A stretch of DNA of 64,000 nucleotides from Promethearchaeota archaeon Loki_b32. Lineage in GTDB: Archaea > Asgardarchaeota > Lokiarchaeia > Sigyniarchaeales > SOKP01. The position numbers were made by a program, and so were the translations under genes. The notes below the pieces were generated by a model. It saw nothing but the letters and a program-made list of their open reading frames with translations. It had not been told where the DNA came from and did no database searches. The DNA lies in assembly GCA_005223125.1 (NCBI GenBank), contig NJBH01000008.1, positions 32,001 to 96,000 on the forward strand. Reading direction: 5' to 3'. How positions within the stretch are numbered: position 1 is the first letter of the stretch; each line of letters starts with the position of its first letter. This document shows, in pieces, positions 53,652 to 63,892 of the stretch.

Positions 53652-55337
53652 ATGATAAATAAAAAACGGAATTATACTATTAAATTCTTACTAGTTTTAG
53701 TAGCAATTTTTTTCATCTCAATTCCGTTAATGTTAGGAGACTTAAAATCCGACTTCAATACCGTACTTTATGATCCTAACCCTAAAATAAGCGATTTCTC
53801 CAAGGATGATTTTAATGCATTACTTACTGAAGAAAAACAAGGACTTGGAAATATATCTATATATGATATTGATTTTAGTGATTTAGAGATGGGATTTATT
53901 ACTTATAATGAAATGTATCCTCTAATTGGGGAAGATATTTTTTCAAAAAATTTGAATATAACCCAGCTTAATATGCAATTCAATGAAACTATAGACCCTG
54001 CAATAGTAGATAATTTGAATGAAAATATAACAGATAGCAATAGTATAACAGTGAAATTAAATGAAAGTTTGTTTGTTGAATACAATGATCTAACGGAAGG
54101 TTATTTAATTTATCTTCCTCGTTTAGTTCCTTGCGATTTATTACAATTTTCTGTTAATAATGGTACTGATAACTTTGAATTAATTGAAGAAACTGATTAC
54201 ACAGTTGATAAAGATAATTTCATTGTATTTAGTTATGAATCCTATTTTAATATATCTGTGACTACAAATTTCACAATGTATCTTATCTGGGAATATACTT
54301 TAGAATTAACTGATTGGAGTTTAAGTCAGATAATTGGGGATGAAGAATTAATAATTGAGGATGAAGAACAAGATTTTACTACTGATTTTAATTATTATTT
54401 TATTTTAACAGGGAAAACATATAATGAATCTATTCCAATTCCTGGCGAACCTATTTTCGCAGATAATATAGATATTGCCTTAACTATTAATCATCCAGAT
54501 AAGGATTTATTTACTAACCATATTCTTGAATTAAATAACGAAACTGTGGATATTGCTGGTCACTTAAATCCAGATGATACAATTGATGTATACTTGGCAG
54601 ATCACTTTTCCGGAGAACTAAGTGAATTTTCTTTGAATTTTACAATTCCATTTACATTTAAATTTATCGAACCTGTTGGGGAAACATGGGCAATAGACAG
54701 ACTTGTAGAAATGAATAATATCCGCCAGCGTATTTATTTAGCATCAATAATAAATGGCCCTCAACATATTTATTTCAAAAATCTATCATTTTATGAGCCT
54801 ACAATTTATGCTGATCAAATTTTAAGCAACACTTCTTTATTTGAAAGAGATTTCACATATTTCTTTTTGAATACGACTCTGACAGGAAGATATGGAATAA
54901 AAGTTAGTGTTCCTTATCTGATTGTTGGAGAAACTTGCCCTTTTATAATTAAATATAAACCGACCCAAACTCTAAGAGTTGTTGTATTAGATAATATAAA
55001 AATGCCACTTGTAGGAGCAGATGTTAAAGTATACTATTTTGATCAAGAATATGGAACGTATGTATCTAAAGATAAAGTTCAACCAATCAGTCCAGGCAAG
55101 ACCAATGAAAATGGTGAAATTGTATTATTGCATGTTCCTGCTGGAAATTATACAATTAGAGTTTATCACAGCGGAAGATTCCTAAAAGAATCTACTTGCA
55201 GTACTTATAATTATAGAAATTATATCACTACAAATTATCCTCATTTTCCTTTATGGATAATAATATTTGGAATTACAAATGGAATCATTCTAATATTTGG
55301 ATTAATTTTTTATTCAAAATATAAGAAAATGCGATAA
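53652..55337 (+). CDS. secreted, C-terminally anchored surface protein with carboxypeptidase-regulatory-like domain
   Basis: N-terminal hydrophobic segment, acidic beta-rich body with many NxS/T sites, PLVGADV...TNENG...GNYTIRV, C-terminal TM plus basic tail. Confidence 0.75.
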   Translation: MINKKRNYTIKFLLVLVAIFFISIPLMLGDLKSDFNTVLYDPNPKISDFSKDDFNALLTEEKQGLGNISIYDIDFSDLEMGFITYNEMYPLIGEDIFSKNLNITQLNMQFNETIDPAIVDNLNENITDSNSITVKLNESLFVEYNDLTEGYLIYLPRLVPCDLLQFSVNNGTDNFELIEETDYTVDKDNFIVFSYESYFNISVTTNFTMYLIWEYTLELTDWSLSQIIGDEELIIEDEEQDFTTDFNYYFILTGKTYNESIPIPGEPIFADNIDIALTINHPDKDLFTNHILELNNETVDIAGHLNPDDTIDVYLADHFSGELSEFSLNFTIPFTFKFIEPVGETWAIDRLVEMNNIRQRIYLASIINGPQHIYFKNLSFYEPTIYADQILSNTSLFERDFTYFFLNTTLTGRYGIKVSVPYLIVGETCPFIIKYKPTQTLRVVVLDNIKMPLVGADVKVYYFDQEYGTYVSKDKVQPISPGKTNENGEIVLLHVPAGNYTIRVYHSGRFLKESTCSTYNYRNYITTNYPHFPLWIIIFGITNGIILIFGLIFYSKYKKMR

Positions 55338-55751
55338 GGCTTTTGATTGTTATCTTTTGTGATAATATAGATGATCATTAATAAAAAACTTGCTGTCGTT
55401 AAATATACTATTATACATACAAACTTATTTTTGTAATACGAAATTAAACATAAAAAATAGGAATGGAAAAGAAAAAGTGGCAAGAGATTTAAACAGAAAG
55501 GTTCTTTTTACACTTTATTTTGGGATTTCTGGTGATACCTTACAATTTAGTTCAATAAGAGAAGCTTCAGGAGATGGAATGGCTCATGTTTACTCAATAC
55601 GATTAGAACTATCTCTTCTTTCAAACAAAATATGTCTATAGCTAAACAGCATAGTAATTATTGAACCAAATTTAACAAAAAGTCTAATCCAATTTTTATC
55701 ATAATCAAAATTAAATTTTGAGAAAAGAGATTAAAGTGTGAAATTGAAATA

Positions 55752-55898
55752 ATGAGAAAAGGATCTACGTTTGTATGGAAGTACTTCATCATATGTTTTG
55801 CAATATCCACATTTATACTGGTACCTATTGGAACTGTCTATGCGCAAGAGAGAACACTCTACTATATCGGGTATGATTATAAGGAGCTGATAATATGA
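55752..55898 (+). pseudogene. signal-peptide-only remnant of a second toxin precursor
   Basis: Hand translation MRKGSTFVWKYFIICFAISTFILVPIGTVYA-QERTLYYIG...; upstream 55611-55690 is homologous to the precursor's upstream region 57337-57415. Confidence 0.6.
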
Positions 55899-56389
55899 AT
55901 GAAAAGGAAAATAATGTGAAAGAAATGAATAAGGAAGAAAACCATAGGAGTTTTTGGAAAAAGTTTAATGAAAAATGGTTATGGGTTAATATCGGTAGTT
56001 ATATAGTTGGAACAATATTACCTTGGTGGTTATTTTTTATCGGTATTACAAACTTGATGACAGTAATCTTTTTAACAATATCAACCCTACTAATTATACC
56101 TTTGATGTATTACTTTTTCAATTACTTTAGAAAATCAAAGCACCAAACGATTATTATCAAAATAATGTTGGTTGGATGCGGCGGATTTAGTTTAGGTATT
56201 TTTATCTGGTTTTTTATTGGTTATACATTTATTATGGCTCCTTGGGCACCTTTAAATAATTTAACTGGTGTCCTAAGACAAAGAATTTTTCTTCTACTTC
56301 TGATATTTTCATGGGGACTTGCTGCATATATAATGTATAGAATAGGTAAAAAAAGAGATTGGAGACCACCCTCCCATTTAATAAATTAA
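55895..56389 (+). CDS. small membrane protein, putative orphan immunity protein 1
   Basis: Paralog of 56734 and 58914: FWKKFNEKWLWVNIG, RKSK, APWAP, AAYIMYRIGKKRDWRP. Confidence 0.8.
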   Translation: MNEKENNVKEMNKEENHRSFWKKFNEKWLWVNIGSYIVGTILPWWLFFIGITNLMTVIFLTISTLLIIPLMYYFFNYFRKSKHQTIIIKIMLVGCGGFSLGIFIWFFIGYTFIMAPWAPLNNLTGVLRQRIFLLLLIFSWGLAAYIMYRIGKKRDWRPPSHLIN

Positions 56390-56733
56390 GTAATTTTCTT
56401 TTTTTAATTCAAAAATTTTAAGATAAATTTGTAATACAAAAATAAGAAAGTGTAGAAGAAGGCAAAAAAAATCATCAAGAAAATGACAAATACAGATAGA
56501 AAATATTTTGAGGAAATAGAAAAGTTTGTCGATATTTTTAAGGAAATAAATCCAACAGTGATTGTTATTGAAGATATTAGTAAGAAAAAAGAAAAAATAA
56601 CATTTCTTAAAAGAAAAAATGATTGAATTATTAAAAGAGAGGAAAGGAACAAAATTTTTAGGTGAAATTAAAAATATCAGAAGGCAAAACTTTTTGGTTG
56701 TTGTTAATGATATGATTATAAGGAGCGGATATT

Positions 56734-57204
56734 ATGAATGAAAAGGAAATTAATGTGAAAGAGAGGAATAAGAAAGAAAACCAGAAGAGTTTCTGGAAAA
56801 ATTTTAAAGAGAATTGGTTATGGGTTACAATCGGGTTTTACATAGGTATAACATCAATGGGCTGGATTGAGTATTTCAGAGGATGTTTTTCTTTAATAGA
56901 AGTAGTTCTTCCCACTTTCATAGGTCCCATTTTTCTATTCGGTATCTTCTATATTAGAAAATCAAAGGATCAAAAAGTGATAATGCGATTGATAATAGTA
57001 ATTGGTGGTGGCTTAGCTTTAGGATTTCCGATATTCATGTCCGTCAATTATATTCTTTTTGTTACATCTTGGGCTCCTTTTCATGAGATTAACGCCATAT
57101 TACGAAGAATACTTACCATCTTGGTTATATTATTATCATATGGTGGAGCAGCATACATAATGGACAAATTAGGTAAGAAGCGAGACTATAGACCGTTTTT
57201 ATAA
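56734..57204 (+). CDS. small membrane protein, putative orphan immunity protein 2
   Basis: FWKNFKENWLWVTIG, YIRKSK, SWAP, AAYIMDKLGKKRDYRPFL. Confidence 0.8.
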   Translation: MNEKEINVKERNKKENQKSFWKNFKENWLWVTIGFYIGITSMGWIEYFRGCFSLIEVVLPTFIGPIFLFGIFYIRKSKDQKVIMRLIIVIGGGLALGFPIFMSVNYILFVTSWAPFHEINAILRRILTILVILLSYGGAAYIMDKLGKKRDYRPFL

Positions 57205-57240
57205 TCTTAGAAATTATAAATAAACTTTTTTTTTTTTCAA
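57164..57240 (+). repeat. direct repeat copy 1 (about 75 bp; immunity-gene 3' end plus T-tract terminator)
   Basis: Near identical to 59323-59397. Confidence 0.85.
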
Positions 57241-57460
57241 AATATTTTAAACTAAATTTTTTTTTTTAATAAAATGAGAGACTCCTAGAAAAAGTCTTAA
57301 ACCTACCGCGACAGATGAAGATTAGGAATCAGGAATATCTCTTCTTTCAAACAAAATATTTATATAGCTAAATATCATAGTAATTACTGAAACAAACTTT
57401 ACAAAAAAGTCCAAAACAAAAATTAAAAAAAGTAAATTAAAATAAAGAGGCGAAACTAGG

Positions 57461-58879
57461 ATGAAGAAGAAATTAAAGATTAAATTTATATCAGCGATTA
57501 TTATTGGAATTATTCTATTACCTACTTGTACATTCTTCATAATCCCAACTGCTCTTGCTCAAGAGAATTCCTTTCAAAACATCTCAGTTCAAGAAGCATA
57601 TACAATGATAAAAAAGGAGGAAAATACTGAAAATCTTGTTATTTTAGATGTTAGAGATACAACCGAATTTAACTTAGGTCATTTATACGATTCTATTCTA
57701 ATACCTCTCAATGACCTTGAAGCAAGAATCGGTGAACTTGAAGATTATAAGACTTCTGAGATAATAATTTACTGTAAATCTGGTTATCGAAGTCAACAAG
57801 CAAGTGAAATTTTAGGTGAATATGGTTTTACAAAAGTATATAATATGCTTGGTGGCATTTTAGCATGGATTGATGCTGATTATCCAATTTGGACAACTTC
57901 ACATCATATTACAGTAGATGAAATAACCGATAAAAAATTTGAATTATTAATAGAACCATTTCTTTTACATTATAAAGGTTGTTCAACATGCACTGAGAAT
58001 CAAGAATGTCCTATTGAGAGTGAATCAATAAGTATAACATCTGAAACATTAGAACAAGGAGAAGATCAAATAGTTATTCTCAAAAAATATGAATTTAATG
58101 GAACAGTCTATGAATTTATTCATACTCATACTATTTTATGGAGTTATGATAAATTTACTAGTAATTATAATAAATCTGCTTACTTCATTTCAACAGAAAT
58201 TACTTCAGAAAATTTCTATTTGCAATATTATCAATTAGAATACGTAATATACCATAAGAACTATAACTTAACGATTTATACTCACCTTGAACCTTTAAAT
58301 TCAGAGATTTATAATAGTTCATTTACATATATAAAATATACTCCTGCTAACGGAAAAGCTATAACTTCAATGGAGTTTGTGCAATTCAATATGTCTGTTA
58401 TATTATCCCAACAATACGACATTTTAGCGGATATCGCGGAAGAAATGGCAGAAATATATAAAAAATCAGAAGATTTAGACCTAATGGAACTATATTATGG
58501 TTATACCAATATGGGAGAAGGAATTGGATCTCTTTCTGAATTAGTAAAAGAATGGCTTGGAGAATATGATTATCAAATTCTTGAAAGTGATGCAGTGTTA
58601 TACGATTACAGAGTACCCCCCATTAATGGTGGTGACCCTCCACCTCCACCTCCACCTCCACCTCCACCTCCACCTCCGCCTCCACCACCACCACCACTAC
58701 CATCTTTGTTAACATGTATTATTTGTATTGCGGGTTGTGAGCTAGCGGTTTTAGCAGGATGCATTATTGCATGCATTATCTATATCCCATTTTGCCCTGT
58801 TTGCGTAGTGGTAGTGGAATTATGGGAATTATTTGACCTAGGTTGTGGTTATGTTTGTGAATATATTGGTGCTTGTTAA
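57461..58879 (+). CDS. secreted rhodanese-domain precursor with Pro20 linker and halocin-C8-like Cys-rich C-terminus
   Basis: Signal peptide ending ALA-QE; LDVR...GHL...YCKSGYRS...MLGGILAW; 20 Pro; 10-Cys hydrophobic tail ending CEYIGAC. Confidence 0.8.
   Translation: MKKKLKIKFISAIIIGIILLPTCTFFIIPTALAQENSFQNISVQEAYTMIKKEENTENLVILDVRDTTEFNLGHLYDSILIPLNDLEARIGELEDYKTSEIIIYCKSGYRSQQASEILGEYGFTKVYNMLGGILAWIDADYPIWTTSHHITVDEITDKKFELLIEPFLLHYKGCSTCTENQECPIESESISITSETLEQGEDQIVILKKYEFNGTVYEFIHTHTILWSYDKFTSNYNKSAYFISTEITSENFYLQYYQLEYVIYHKNYNLTIYTHLEPLNSEIYNSSFTYIKYTPANGKAITSMEFVQFNMSVILSQQYDILADIAEEMAEIYKKSEDLDLMELYYGYTNMGEGIGSLSELVKEWLGEYDYQILESDAVLYDYRVPPINGGDPPPPPPPPPPPPPPPPPPPPLPSLLTCIICIAGCELAVLAGCIIACIIYIPFCPVCVVVVELWELFDLGCGYVCEYIGAC
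58637..58696 (+). repeat. (CCTCCA)n/(CCA)n microsatellite encoding 20 prolines
   Basis: Directly visible. Confidence 0.95.
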
Positions 58880-58913
58880 CGGATTGGTATTTGTTCTTAA
58901 TAAACTTTAAGGA

Positions 58914-59363
58914 GTGGTTATATTGAAGCTGAAAGAAAAAATCAAGAACTTTTGGAATGAGTTTAAAAAGCATTGGTTATGGGTTAATATTGGTGCATAT
59001 ATGATGATAACGATGATAAATTGGACAGGATTTTTCCTTGGCTCTATAAAATTTGAGATAGCCCTCTTAATTACACTTATATACCCCTTAATAATTCTTA
59101 CTATCTTTTACATAAGAAAATCTAAATTTGAGACAACCATTTATAAGATAGTATGGATTGTATGTGGGGGTATAGCTCTAGGATTTCCAATATGGGGTAT
59201 AATTTTTTTCGTCCTTATTGGAGCTCCTTGGGCTCCTTTATATGAAGCACATAATATTTTAAGAGGAAGCATTTCAATCCTGATTCTGGTACCAGCATAT
59301 GGTGTGGCAGCGCATTTAATGTACAAATTAGGTAAGAAGCGAGACTATAGACCGTTTTTATGA
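58914..59363 (+). CDS. small membrane protein, putative cognate immunity protein
   Basis: Starts 35 bp after the precursor stop; FWNEFKKHWLWVNIG, YIRKSK, APWAP, KLGKKRDYRPFL. Confidence 0.8.
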   Translation: MVILKLKEKIKNFWNEFKKHWLWVNIGAYMMITMINWTGFFLGSIKFEIALLITLIYPLIILTIFYIRKSKFETTIYKIVWIVCGGIALGFPIWGIIFFVLIGAPWAPLYEAHNILRGSISILILVPAYGVAAHLMYKLGKKRDYRPFL

Positions 59364-59397
59364 TCTTAGAAATTATAAATAAACTTTTTTTTTTCAA
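59323..59397 (+). repeat. direct repeat copy 2
   Basis: Near identical to 57164-57240. Confidence 0.85.
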
Positions 59398-59717
59398 ACT
59401 CTATCTGGGCAGTACTTCTATACTCTATCTGGGAAATGGTGAAAAGATGCCTATTATTTTACGAAATTAAAGAAATTAAACACTCTGTTAATCTATCAAA
59501 TGTAATAAATTCGGAAATTGTGCTTCATTTTTTAGCGAAAATCTCTAATACTCTCATATTATATGAAACTAAACAAGAGATAACGCAGTCTAGTGGTTCA
59601 AATAGTCGTGAGGAAGTAATTCAGTCTTTACAAAATATTTTTATTCAAGTGGATCCTTCACTAAAACTTGTTAAAGGAAAGATAAGAGAAATTTTTTTGT
59701 CATATTCTTCTTAAAGA

Positions 59718-61289
59718 TTAATTATTATCAACAGTTTCTCCATATCCAATTAACCGATAACGTCTATTTATTATTCTCGAAATTGCAAAGATAAAATCTT
59801 CTGCAGGACATATTGGAGGATTTAATTTAATGATAACACTGTCTTTTAAAATTTTAGTTACTGTTCCTCCTGTTTTTTCTGTACCAACGACTAATAATAA
59901 TTTTTCATTATGCTTAAGCGAATGTACTCTGAGCATCTGCTCGGAGCCAATCACCCTATCTAATAGGTTCACTTTAAATTCAATTTCATGAAGGATTTCA
60001 GGTAATGTATCTGGTTTTCCGACTAGGTTCCCTATTAAATGATCACCCTTAGTTAAAGCAGGATCTAAGTTAGTTCCTAAACCTATAAGCCCTCCAGGTT
60101 TTGCGTTATCTAGTAGGTTACTCCCTTGACTAATACTAACAACAGTAGATTTTAAAGGAATGTATTCATCTTTCACCCTTAAACCCGGTCGAATTTCTAT
60201 TTGATCTCCAATTTTAATCATTCCTTTTAACACTGAACCACCAATTACCCCACCCTTTAAATCACTTATTTCTTTCCCAGGTCTATTAATATCAAAAGAT
60301 CGTGCAATTAAAAATTGAAATTCGCCTTCAGGAAGTTTGGGGGATGGAATAATTTCTTCAAATGCTCTTATAATTAAATCTATATTTGCTCCAAATACAG
60401 CGGAAATTGGTATTATTGGAGCGTTTTCAGCAATAGTTCCCTTAATAAATTCTTTAATTTGTTGGTAATTTTCTAATGCTTGTTCTCGTGAAACCGCATC
60501 AATTTTATTTTGAATGATGATGATATTTTTTATTCCAGCAATGTGTAATGCTTCTAAATGTTCCCTCGTTTGTGGTTGAGGACATCGCTCATCAGCCGCA
60601 ATTAATAAGCAAGCTCCATCCATTAATGAGGCCCCACTTAACATTGTTGCCATAAGAATTTCATGACCAGGAGCATCAACAAATGAAATATTCCTTCTAA
60701 ATTCTAATTGTTCTTTACATTGTGGGCATAAGTAACGGGGTTGTCCTTTTTCCCTTGACTTCTCCGCTAGATAATATGTTATATATTCATCACAATTCGG
60801 ACAATATAAAATTGTGGCATTAGAATACCCTAATTTTATTGAAATTCCTCTTTCTTGCTCTTCAGAGTGTCTATCTGTCCAATCTCCTGTTAATGTTTTC
60901 ACTAATGTAGTTTTTCCGTGATCCACATGACCTACTAAACCTATATTACATTCAGCTTGTTTTTTTATTAATTCTTTAATATTTGAAGCTTTAGTTTTAG
61001 ATTTTGGTTTTGGTTTAGGTTTAGATTTTGGTTCTAGTTCTGGTTTTACTTTAGAAATAACTTTTACTTTAGATTTTGGCTCTTCTTGAGCACCAATTTC
61101 TTGATATAATTTCTTTGCATTAGTAATATATTTCTTTGCAGTAGCAGCACCCACACCTTTAATCTTTAACTTTATTAATTCATCAGGATTAACATTAGCT
61201 AATTTTGCAATGCTATCTATCCCTGCAGCTTTCATTTTATCTGCAGTAGCTTTTCCGATGCCAGCAATATCTGTTAAATCATATGACAT
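59718..61289 (-). CDS. eif2g: translation initiation factor aIF2 gamma with N-terminal HhH domain
   Basis: NIGLVGHVDHGKTT, RGISIKLGY, DAPGHE, PQPQTREH, QNKID, ARSFDINRPG, RLIGYG; extra LTDIAGIGKATA...GVGAATA plus KP-rich linker. Confidence 0.95.
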   Translation of the reverse strand: MSYDLTDIAGIGKATADKMKAAGIDSIAKLANVNPDELIKLKIKGVGAATAKKYITNAKKLYQEIGAQEEPKSKVKVISKVKPELEPKSKPKPKPKSKTKASNIKELIKKQAECNIGLVGHVDHGKTTLVKTLTGDWTDRHSEEQERGISIKLGYSNATILYCPNCDEYITYYLAEKSREKGQPRYLCPQCKEQLEFRRNISFVDAPGHEILMATMLSGASLMDGACLLIAADERCPQPQTREHLEALHIAGIKNIIIIQNKIDAVSREQALENYQQIKEFIKGTIAENAPIIPISAVFGANIDLIIRAFEEIIPSPKLPEGEFQFLIARSFDINRPGKEISDLKGGVIGGSVLKGMIKIGDQIEIRPGLRVKDEYIPLKSTVVSISQGSNLLDNAKPGGLIGLGTNLDPALTKGDHLIGNLVGKPDTLPEILHEIEFKVNLLDRVIGSEQMLRVHSLKHNEKLLLVVGTEKTGGTVTKILKDSVIIKLNPPICPAEDFIFAISRIINRRYRLIGYGETVDNN

Positions 61290-61729: not shown

Positions 61730-63892
61730 ATGGTTAGGTTTTCTACTAAAAAATTTATCTACTTTTCAATCATCATTTTAACTCTCATTCCACTTGTCAG
61801 TTCAAGTCTAAGTTTTAGCTTCTCGAATTTAGAAAAGAATAATGTTTCGGAGGAAATTAGAGTTTCAAATGGAAACTTAGATTTGGATTTATCATTTCTA
61901 CCAGATATTGATTATTCTTCGTTAAATAATCTCTGGTATAACCATAAAATCGAAATGTTGATAATAACTCCAGATGGTTCTGCATTTGTCAACGCAATTC
62001 AACCATTAGCAGATTGGAAAAATGAGAAAGGGGTAAAAACAGTCATATTAAGCAATTACTCTTCATATGAAGGTGTGGATGATGCTGATAAAATTCGTAA
62101 TATGATTAAATCGTATTATGAAAAAGAAAATGTTAGATGGGTCCTTTTAGCAGGTGATGCTGGAAACGGAAAGAATGAGCTCCCGATTAGATATGTTTAT
62201 AATCCCGATGTTAGAAGCGTGGACCCACCTGAAAGTGAATCCATAGGAGATAATTATTTTAAACCTACGGATTTTTATTATGCGGATCTTACAGGTACTT
62301 GGGATAGCGATGAAGATGAAGTATGGGGAGAGGCACCAGAGTATAATGATTTTGGTTTAGATGAGATTTCATGGATCCCTGAGGTTTATGTTGGAAGATT
62401 ACCCGCAGGTAATTCCGTTGAACTTGAGACTATGGTAAACAAAACATTAAAATATGAAACTGATCCAGACGTAGATGATTGGATGAATAATATGCTCCTC
62501 GCTGGAGGTATTTCTGATACATTTTTTCAAGAGCCTCCAGATGGAGAAGATGAATCAAAACTAACTACATATATTTGGCAGAATTATGTTTTGTCAGAGA
62601 TGAACTTTACCCATTTATGGAGATCGACATATTATATACCTCCTGATCCTAAAGAACCATTAAATTCAACAAGTTTCATAGATCAATTTAATTTAGGTTA
62701 TTCAACGGTAATTTTTGCGGGTCATGGAGAATATTCTAGATATTTAGATCAATCTGGTACAATATATACCAATAATGATGCTCAAAATGCATTAAATACT
62801 AATAAACCTTCATTAGTCTATGGAGATGCATGTACTACATCTAGCTATGATTATAACAATAATAGTATTGGAGAATATTTAATCAAAAAAAAAGATGCTG
62901 GAGCAATTGGATATATCGGAGGTTTAAGAGTAACATGGTACCACGTGAATGATGACAACCTAGAGAAATTGAATCGTGGAAACGCGAAGCTTTTTTGGAA
63001 AGAATTTTTTGAAGGAAAAAAGTTTCAACAAGGAAGAGCTCTATATGATTCTAAAGTTGCATATATAAATAGTGACTATTATAAAGGAGGAGAAGGAGCA
63101 ACATATAAGGAATGGGAACGTAAAAATCTATTAACATACTGTCTTTTGGGTGATCCAGAACTTGATATTTATACCAATAAACCAAAATTGGCATTAAATC
63201 CTTTTACTGAAAATATTTATGAAGGCCAATTAGTTTCTACATCGATAAAGGATATCAATGGTAAAAACATTCCTTACGCAAGAGTTCACTTAAAATCATC
63301 TGATGGTAAATATTATACAGCATATGCAGATGAACGTGGTTTAGTGAGATTCCGTCTTCCTGCTCAAGCAACTGAATTTTATAATGTAACTATTACAGGA
63401 CATAATTTAGTTCCAACACATTTCAATTTTACTACAATTCCAGATAATTACGACCCTCAATTACTCAGATTAGACGTAATTCCTGAGAAACCTTCATCAT
63501 CTAACAAAATAAATTTTAGTATTGAAACTTATGATAATATGTCTGGAATAGAAAGTGTATATTTAGTATTATCAAAAGACAACTTTACTACTTACTCATA
63601 TTATGAATCAACAAATAGCTATGAAGAAAATAATGATGTATTTACAATCACTACTGACAGATTAACTTCGGGTGAATATTCCTATTGTATTGTTTCAAGA
63701 GACTATGCAAACAATACAAATGTGTTTTATAATTCAGGATTCACTTTTTCTCTATTAAAACCTATGATAGATTATATATTTATTTCATTTAGTGTTATGA
63801 TTGTTGCAATCATAGGAATCTCTGTTTTCAGTCTCTTCAAAGGTTTACAAAGATATTCTCGTGTTGTCAAAGAGATTGAAAAATTAACGTAA
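61730..63892 (+). CDS. C25 (gingipain-like) cysteine peptidase, secreted and membrane-anchored
   Basis: LADWKNEKG, VLLAGD, TDFYYADL, VGRLP, FAGHG, DACTT, LLGDPEL; N-terminal signal and C-terminal TM. Confidence 0.92.
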   Translation: MVRFSTKKFIYFSIIILTLIPLVSSSLSFSFSNLEKNNVSEEIRVSNGNLDLDLSFLPDIDYSSLNNLWYNHKIEMLIITPDGSAFVNAIQPLADWKNEKGVKTVILSNYSSYEGVDDADKIRNMIKSYYEKENVRWVLLAGDAGNGKNELPIRYVYNPDVRSVDPPESESIGDNYFKPTDFYYADLTGTWDSDEDEVWGEAPEYNDFGLDEISWIPEVYVGRLPAGNSVELETMVNKTLKYETDPDVDDWMNNMLLAGGISDTFFQEPPDGEDESKLTTYIWQNYVLSEMNFTHLWRSTYYIPPDPKEPLNSTSFIDQFNLGYSTVIFAGHGEYSRYLDQSGTIYTNNDAQNALNTNKPSLVYGDACTTSSYDYNNNSIGEYLIKKKDAGAIGYIGGLRVTWYHVNDDNLEKLNRGNAKLFWKEFFEGKKFQQGRALYDSKVAYINSDYYKGGEGATYKEWERKNLLTYCLLGDPELDIYTNKPKLALNPFTENIYEGQLVSTSIKDINGKNIPYARVHLKSSDGKYYTAYADERGLVRFRLPAQATEFYNVTITGHNLVPTHFNFTTIPDNYDPQLLRLDVIPEKPSSSNKINFSIETYDNMSGIESVYLVLSKDNFTTYSYYESTNSYEENNDVFTITTDRLTSGEYSYCIVSRDYANNTNVFYNSGFTFSLLKPMIDYIFISFSVMIVAIIGISVFSLFKGLQRYSRVVKEIEKLT

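Follow-up and report, generated by a model that had tools for sequence, protein, structure and literature searches.

A predicted polymorphic peptide toxin-immunity locus with orphan membrane partners in a Lokiarchaeial genome

Gene content of the locus

The 64,000-nucleotide stretch of Promethearchaeota archaeon Loki_b32 analysed here (contig NJBH01000008.1, positions 32,001 to 96,000; hereafter, the window) contains a block of four genes: one for a secreted precursor ending in a hydrophobic Cys-rich segment, which we call the tip, and three for related membrane proteins with four transmembrane (TM) segments, which we call partners (Table 1). A preliminary description of the window had read this block as an archaeocin-immunity locus. 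Its four open reading frames (ORFs) and the 35-nt gap between the precursor and the third membrane gene were all confirmed; overlooked were the rhodanese domain of the precursor, the remnant of a deleted tip ahead of imm2, the second copy of the precursor's upstream region, and the nature of the block as an insertion. That the locus belongs to a real polymorphic peptide-and-partner system with undescribed carrier and partner families is well supported by the sequence comparisons below, and a toxin-immunity function is strongly suggested by the genomics.

Table 1. Features of the locus, in coordinates of the window
Feature	Position	Strand	Remarks
5' start (11 codons) of a conserved 109-aa ORF split by the island	55343..55375	+	ORF intact across the empty site in L171 and L175
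Inserted island, ~4.08 kb	55376..59454	.	between a 561-aa surface-protein gene and the aIF2-gamma gene
Copy of the precursor upstream (promoter) region, in front of imm1	55380..55681	+	ends in an 80-nt repeat (55602-55681)
48-aa signal-peptide-shaped ORF	55752..55898	+	overlaps the imm1 start; sequence inspection
imm1, orphan 4-TM partner (predicted immunity protein), 164 aa	55895-56389	+	
Scar: five final codons (LFGCC), with the stop, from a Cys-rich tip that was deleted	56690..56707	+	ahead of imm2
imm2, orphan 4-TM partner, 156 aa	56734-57204	+	
Second copy of the 80-nt upstream repeat, ahead of the precursor	57328..57407	+	86% identical between copies
Precursor, 472 aa	57461-58879	+	
Sec-type signal peptide, precursor residues 1-33	57461..57559	+	from sequence and hydropathy; cleavage site inferred
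Rhodanese domain, precursor residues 47-138	57599..57874	+	PF00581, E 2e-16
Conserved carrier (pro) domain, precursor residues 146-382	57896..58606	+	ends at Asp382
Gly/poly-Pro linker	58607..58696	+	junction of tip exchange
Tip (predicted toxin), 60 aa, 10 Cys, hydrophobic	58697..58879	+	net charge -5; helical hairpin
imm3, cognate 4-TM partner (predicted immunity protein), 149 aa	58914-59363	+	GTG start 35 nt past the precursor stop
3' remainder of the split 109-aa ORF	59436..59714	+	now a 92-aa frame with a new start

The signal peptide of the precursor has a Lys-rich n-region, a hydrophobic core and the residues ALA before residue 34, and lacks a twin Arg. The domain that follows it falls within the rhodanese family by its Pfam match and its active-site loop CKSGYRS, whose Cys105 is kept in 62 of 63 homologs, and may transfer sulfur. 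Beyond the rhodanese domain, the precursor family has no Pfam match and no known delivery module or toxin domain. The AlphaFold2 model of the carrier (mean predicted local distance difference test score, pLDDT, 89) combines a long antiparallel beta-meander and three helices. The carrier had no significant family or fold match in a Pfam search or in fold searches of the PDB and the ESM Atlas. A profile search with the carrier recovered 221 clusters at 50% identity, and nearly all complete clusters end in or contain a hydrophobic Cys-rich segment; in about 100 distant carriers, this C-terminal tip varies in length and mostly has 8-14 Cys. The Asp at the carrier end (Asp382 here) is conserved in 82 of 84 sequences, with the Cys-rich segment beginning just after it, and is a candidate site for release of the tip. 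No further paralog of the carrier or tip was detected in the genome (4.13 Mb, 95.5% complete), and the carrier was not found in plasmids. Long precursor forms of ~600-790 aa (P0169, P0187, P0177, P0150, P0209 and P0250) have an extra ~140-aa beta-rich domain after or before the Cys-rich segment; at the one such locus that was opened (L166:4001-5755), a terminase gene lies nearby and there is no partner gene.

The three partners are mutually 43-47% identical (tblastn E 1e-32 to 1e-37). All are basic at the N-terminus, contain four hydrophobic segments and carry a basic motif at the C-terminus. The motifs WLWVxIG, RKSK, WAP and GKKRDxRP are invariant in all three. Their combination with diverged TM cores, pointed out in the preliminary description, extends to the wider family: among 111 partner homologs, the motif columns are 71-78% conserved versus 45-53% for the TM cores and loops. 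The genome has no fourth paralog of this membrane protein, and the family is not named by Pfam, NCBIfam or PADLOC. Sequence searches of the PDB with tip and partner profiles gave nothing meaningful, and feature searches of the Atlas gave unnamed clusters only.

Tip exchange, co-variation with partners and orphan genes

The AlphaFold2 model of the tip (pLDDT 83.5) shows a helical hairpin plus a third, short helix. Tips of the family have a mean grand average of hydropathy (GRAVY) of 1.34, are almost all anionic, and have an even number of Cys in 65 out of 80 cases. Identity among 29 close homologs is 47-94% for the carrier and 14-40% for the tip. The C-terminal domain is far from invariant across strains; it is invariance that the preliminary description had named as speaking against its proposal.

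At the DNA level, the identity of the window to three relatives (L151, L022 and L047) switches within positions 58601-58700, that is, in the linker. L151 and L022 match on the carrier side at 91-100 of 100 nt and leave the tip unmatched; L047 matches along the tip and partner at 82-88 of 100 nt and more weakly, at 57-72, along the carrier. The encoded proteins behave alike, as the L151 carrier, tip and partner are 94%, 35% and 47% identical to those of the window, and the tip and partner of L047 are 84% and 85% identical but its carrier just 58%. These comparisons show that tips have been swapped by recombination at the linker, on a conserved carrier. The ratio of nonsynonymous to synonymous substitution rates (dN/dS) between the window and L047 tips is 0.19, indicating purifying selection and therefore a functional module rather than drift.

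Tip and partner identities correlate across 23 non-redundant pairs (Mantel r 0.44, p 1e-4), as expected from the co-variation that the preliminary description had put forward as support. For those 17 pairs that include a carrier, tip and partner have a partial correlation of 0.54 given the carrier, and tip and carrier do not correlate (r -0.10). The polymorphic architecture proposed there is borne out in that the tip varies on a conserved carrier and co-varies with the downstream membrane gene, not with the carrier. The type of tip matters as well. In classes that were set by eye, a 4-TM gene follows 24 of 25 short-type tips, the type found in the window, and none of 23 tips of three other classes, which mostly pair with different membrane genes of 65-112 aa, chiefly from 2-TM families. 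The 4-TM family, which the preliminary description had taken as the dedicated immunity family, is only one of at least three undescribed partner families.

Both partners upstream of the precursor lack an intact precursor of their own, and their earlier interpretation as orphans stood up. At the amino acid level, imm2 is 94% identical to a gene that immediately follows an intact precursor of 465 aa on several metagenome contigs (L156-L161), and the 45 nt upstream of imm2, which include the scar, are 98% identical to the tip end and spacer of the intact L156 precursor. From these two matches we conclude that the tip of imm2 was deleted and its partner retained. The nearest relatives of imm1 (72-73% identical) are likewise orphans, and its best cognate-type matches are 60-67% identical. 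The sequence evidence supports imm1 and imm2 acting as orphan partners of the tips of other strains. The dN/dS values of imm2 are 0.58 and 0.48 against 0.14 for the cognate imm3, all based on few differences.

Across 400 Asgard genomes, the carrier was detected in 19 and the partner in 57, about 35 of them with strong matches, and this patchy occurrence agrees with the polymorphic toxin-immunity interpretation set out below. Many genomes are incomplete, so that a missing carrier means not found rather than absent. Most GTDB records with the partner family are titled Promethearchaeota. The system, which the preliminary description had ascribed to Lokiarchaeia, spans more than one class of Asgard. 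Among 60 distinct partner genes from GTDB genomes, 12 lie behind an intact precursor, seven behind a tip relic, two behind an N-terminal relic, 18 in arrays, 17 alone and four at contig edges; 39 of the 60 are tied to parts of the system. Orphan tip-partner cassettes or partner arrays were found at L014, L060, L133, L136, L139, L143 and L144, as well as in the window. No partner homolog was found in viral contigs.

Several partner homologs have unusual surroundings or architectures. At L136, L139 and L190, genes for 4-TM and 2-TM partners are mixed in arrays that also hold relics of tips or rhodanese domains and lack any intact precursor; at least three further partner families are as yet undescribed. 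One contig encodes an ArsR-like helix-turn-helix (HTH) domain fused to a 4-TM protein that is 86% identical to imm3 (L219:271-990). Another Asgard family consists of 259-302-aa proteins, sometimes in tandem (L215:132-1828 and L216:1153-1965), which in their C-terminal part are weakly similar to the 4-TM partner (local search, E ~1e-10), a similarity that takes in the GKKR-type tail. A C-terminal fragment of the partner family at the contig end of a Bathyarchaeia metagenome-assembled genome (L075:3-113) suggests a range beyond Asgard. The partner in L070, labelled 'Candidatus Nanopelagicaceae bacterium', is probably from a mislabelled Asgard record and not a transfer to bacteria.

Known systems and competing explanations

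The preliminary description had likened the precursor to that of halocin C8. The likeness holds for the general plan of a secreted precursor with a Cys-rich hydrophobic C-terminal peptide of ~60-80 aa (76 aa in C8 and 60 aa here), and does not extend to family membership. The halocin C8 precursor of Natrinema, ProC8 (HalI + HalC8), has 283 aa, is exported by the twin-arginine translocation (Tat) pathway and contains its own immunity protein, HalI, at the N-terminus, and its gene has halR, halU and ATP-binding cassette (ABC) transporter genes (halT) as neighbours (bioRxiv 10.64898/2026.07.27.741052). The precursor in the window differs in its 472 aa, its Sec-type signal, its rhodanese domain and unrelated carrier, and its separate downstream membrane partner, and the system further differs in its swapped tips and orphan arrays. 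The halocin C8 model TIGR04449 had no match at E<=10 in the precursor or the genome and none over its cut-off in the 400 Asgard genomes, and a sequence search found no HalI (PF22862) in the precursor. There is no twin-arginine motif in the signal peptide of the window or of the close homologs listed, and halR, halU and halT ABC transporter genes are missing from the neighbourhood in the window. By the tests run, the locus is not a member of the halocin C8 family. Weak matches to TIGR04449, the sole NCBIfam model with more than two matches among 91 family tips, were found in 10 of these tips (best E 0.014, no composition control) and hint at a distant kinship to halocin C8. Such weak matches can arise by chance, as the TIGR04449 matches inspected in two other Asgard genomes (L180 and L183) fell in off-frames of unrelated genes and were rejected.

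Orphan modules are known in bacterial polymorphic toxin systems of the contact-dependent inhibition (CDI) and Rhs types. The locus resembles bacterial polymorphic toxin systems (Zhang et al. 2012, PMC3482391) and the orphan immunity arrays of the Vibrio type VI secretion system (T6SS; PMC5361080) in its conserved delivery part, its variable tip, the cognate gene directly downstream, the orphan tip-immunity cassettes, and the near identity of orphans to the cognate genes of other strains. The Vibrio T6SS immunity arrays, too, have kept the partner after loss of the tip (PMC5361080). The locus differs in that its tip is a small disulfide-type peptide and not an enzyme, in that no known delivery module is present, and in that the orphans lie upstream of the active pair. 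It shares with polymorphic toxins the variable tip, the downstream co-varying gene, the orphan arrays and the tip exchange at a junction, although linkage may be the cause of the co-variation. The literature searched contained no description of such a system in Asgard archaea; a 2019 mBio survey of archaeal halocin C8 and polymorphic toxins (PMC6509191) was outside the searched text.

The tips also resemble saposin-like proteins (saposins, surfactant protein B), which are small helical lipid-loving domains with CxxC near the start and C-x5-C at the end. In the window these are Cys419/422 and Cys466/472, and the full spacing occurs in 29 of 80 tips versus a mean of 3.3 (maximum 9) in shuffles. 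The tip of the window differs in being shorter (60 aa) and in having 10 Cys, and the SapB_1 and SapB_2 profiles did not match the tips. A Foldseek search of the PDB with the tip had only three matches, all of them saposin-family chains and not significant (E 6-10). The alignments to these chains (Z 4.2-4.5, root mean square deviation 2.6-3.1 over 51-54 residues) scored below those to unrelated hairpins (Z 5-6). Fold searches of the PDB and the ESM Atlas with the tip and with the carrier plus tip gave generic helical-hairpin or beta-sheet matches only. We regard the saposin-like Cys pattern as a lead only. NK-lysin, granulysin and amoebapore are saposin-like proteins; it seems unlikely that the tips are true saposin-fold, disulfide-stapled membrane-lytic peptides related by descent to these eukaryotic proteins, in which case Asgard archaea would wield a polymorphic weapon of saposin-like type together with membrane antidotes.

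Taken together, we consider it likely that the locus belongs to a polymorphic toxin-immunity system that resembles bacteriocins and serves in conflicts among Asgard strains, with toxicity and protection predicted from genomic patterns. The precursor would be exported by the Sec pathway, with the rhodanese and carrier domains keeping the hydrophobic tip soluble and aiding its folding, and the rhodanese Cys may help in disulfide or persulfide chemistry. The tip would then be exposed, or cut near the conserved Asp382 or in the linker, and its disulfide-stapled helical hairpin would insert into the membrane of a susceptible neighbour, as suggested by its composition and by halocin C8. In the membrane of the producer, the downstream 4-TM protein may neutralise its tip via the variable TM core. 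The alignments described above show that tip and partner move between lineages as a single module that recombines at the linker, and that partners outlive deleted tips; imm1 and imm2 are such orphans and would protect against the tips of other strains. The predicted complex of imm3 with the tip scored 0.28 relative to a mark of 0.32 and was used as evidence neither way.

A number of observations weigh against this interpretation. The partner also tracks the carrier (partial r 0.52), and because tip and partner adjoin, with a spacing of 20-45 bp, their co-variation may stem from linkage alone. The pairing is loose, with tip and partner sharing a nearest neighbour in just 9 of 23 pairs, and the relic tips of L014 and L060 are 97% identical, yet have clearly different partners. 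The tip classes were set with the partners in view and the 2-TM models were seeded from the same loci; given such classes and models and the relatedness of the pairs, the nominal Fisher p for the class pairing overstates its significance. Precursors without a detected partner exist in L022, in L044 and as the long form in L166. Most membrane-lytic peptides, unlike the family tips, are not anionic, and we count the charge of the tip against a lytic role. About 24 of the 35 genomes with strong partner matches have no detected carrier. Partner homologs were expected to lie usually directly downstream of a precursor, and read literally this failed, as only 12 of the 60 partner genes do and 17 stand alone; a membrane family occurring mostly without precursors is what the preliminary description had named beforehand as contradicting its proposal. 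We do not take this surplus as a refutation because antidotes to a diffusible weapon should be more numerous than the weapon itself and because 39 of the 60 genes are tied to the system. Still, the many precursor-less partners keep alive the views of the membrane protein as a receptor or as a general protection factor.

Under the receptor view, the system would serve non-lethal peptide signalling or kin recognition, with the tip as pheromone or identity tag, the 4-TM protein as its receptor and the orphans sensing other strains. This predicts the same co-variation, swapping and orphan retention, and suits the many partners that stand alone, the family member with an N-terminal HTH fusion (P0012, on one contig) and the distant relatives in another family with ~120-aa N-terminal extensions. 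We nevertheless consider it unlikely, since the HTH fusion is a single case and a typical partner lacks an output domain, its cytoplasmic parts being just short basic termini. The loci examined contain no linked kinase or regulator, and with other tip classes the position of the 4-TM gene is taken by unrelated 2-TM proteins of 65-92 aa, a pattern easier to reconcile with antidotes than with receptors. Less probable again is that the product of the membrane gene assists the tip in maturation, export or anchoring, or protects in general against membrane stress, and that the orphans are leftovers of cassette turnover. The tight linkage and class-specific pairing do fit a dedicated chaperone, and dN/dS is higher for imm2 than for imm3, as under relaxed selection, although for imm2 it is still below 1. 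A chaperone without its client is useless, yet intact partners persist in many genomes without a detected carrier, accumulate in arrays with other partner families, and remain intact where tips have been precisely deleted. Finally, the precursor might be a sulfurtransferase or adhesin displayed on the cell surface, its Cys-rich hydrophobic tail serving just as a variable membrane anchor, with no role in conflict. The near-universal catalytic Cys of the rhodanese domains, a hydrophobicity sufficient for membrane spanning, and the beta-rich domain past the Cys-rich segment in some long forms all agree with this. But an anchor needs neither 8-14 mostly even Cys nor class-specific partner genes, the carrier-less tip-partner cassettes would go unexplained, and in its rarity and mobility the system is unlike a core metabolic gene; we find this very improbable.

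Competition and recognition among Asgard archaea, the closest prokaryotic relatives of eukaryotes, are almost unknown. The locus offers a testable predicted weapon-antidote set, with short synthesisable tips and with cognate and orphan partners that have a predicted pattern of protection. If the toxin-immunity interpretation is correct, the principle of polymorphic toxins would come to include small Cys-rich peptides of Asgard archaea, and the tips would provide a large natural library of candidate anti-archaeal peptides; if the saposin resemblance is real, the locus would bear on the origin of eukaryotic membrane-lytic immune peptides.

Insertion site and neighbouring genes

The 4.1-kb block is an insertion that splits a conserved 109-aa gene. 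A DNA search covered 54 genomes of the genus, and in most of the 53 congeners the left flank (ending at 55375) meets the right flank (starting at 59455) with ~37-40 nt between them. In the near strain L022, whose left flank is 96% identical, the left junction is the same and adjoins a precursor that has a 97% identical carrier and a tip of a different class with 14 Cys. L022 lacks the 1726-bp imm1-imm2 orphan cassette, which in the window is flanked by the two copies of the 80-nt upstream repeat, and has a single copy of this repeat. Because its right flank differs, L022 is not a clean allele of the island. The upstream-region copy in front of imm1 is 95-97% identical to sequences that immediately precede precursors, or relics of them, in L022 and L015.

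The 48-aa ORF at the start of imm1 has no homolog in the loci, proteins or genome and is possibly a relic of a lost secreted protein. Two further short ORFs (56483-56626 and 56619-56741) had no protein-level homologs and were rejected as spurious or debris. Scans for promoters and terminators gave results at chance level. A 139-nt direct repeat (83% identity; 57097-57235 and 59256-59394) corresponds to the 3'-terminal parts of imm2 and imm3 with their T-rich tails, and could drive gain or loss of the precursor-imm3 unit.

To the left of the island, the genus-conserved 561-aa surface protein (53652-55337, + strand) has hydrophobic N- and C-terminal segments, many N-glycosylation sequons and a weak carboxypeptidase-regulatory-like domain. 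On the right, aIF2-gamma (59718-61289, - strand) has an N-terminal helix-hairpin-helix domain and a Lys/Pro-rich linker, an architecture that is the same in the congener L175. Outside the island, at a distance of 2.3 kb, lies a gene for a membrane-anchored C25 (gingipain-like) peptidase (61730-63892, + strand), a possible candidate for the protease that processes the precursor.

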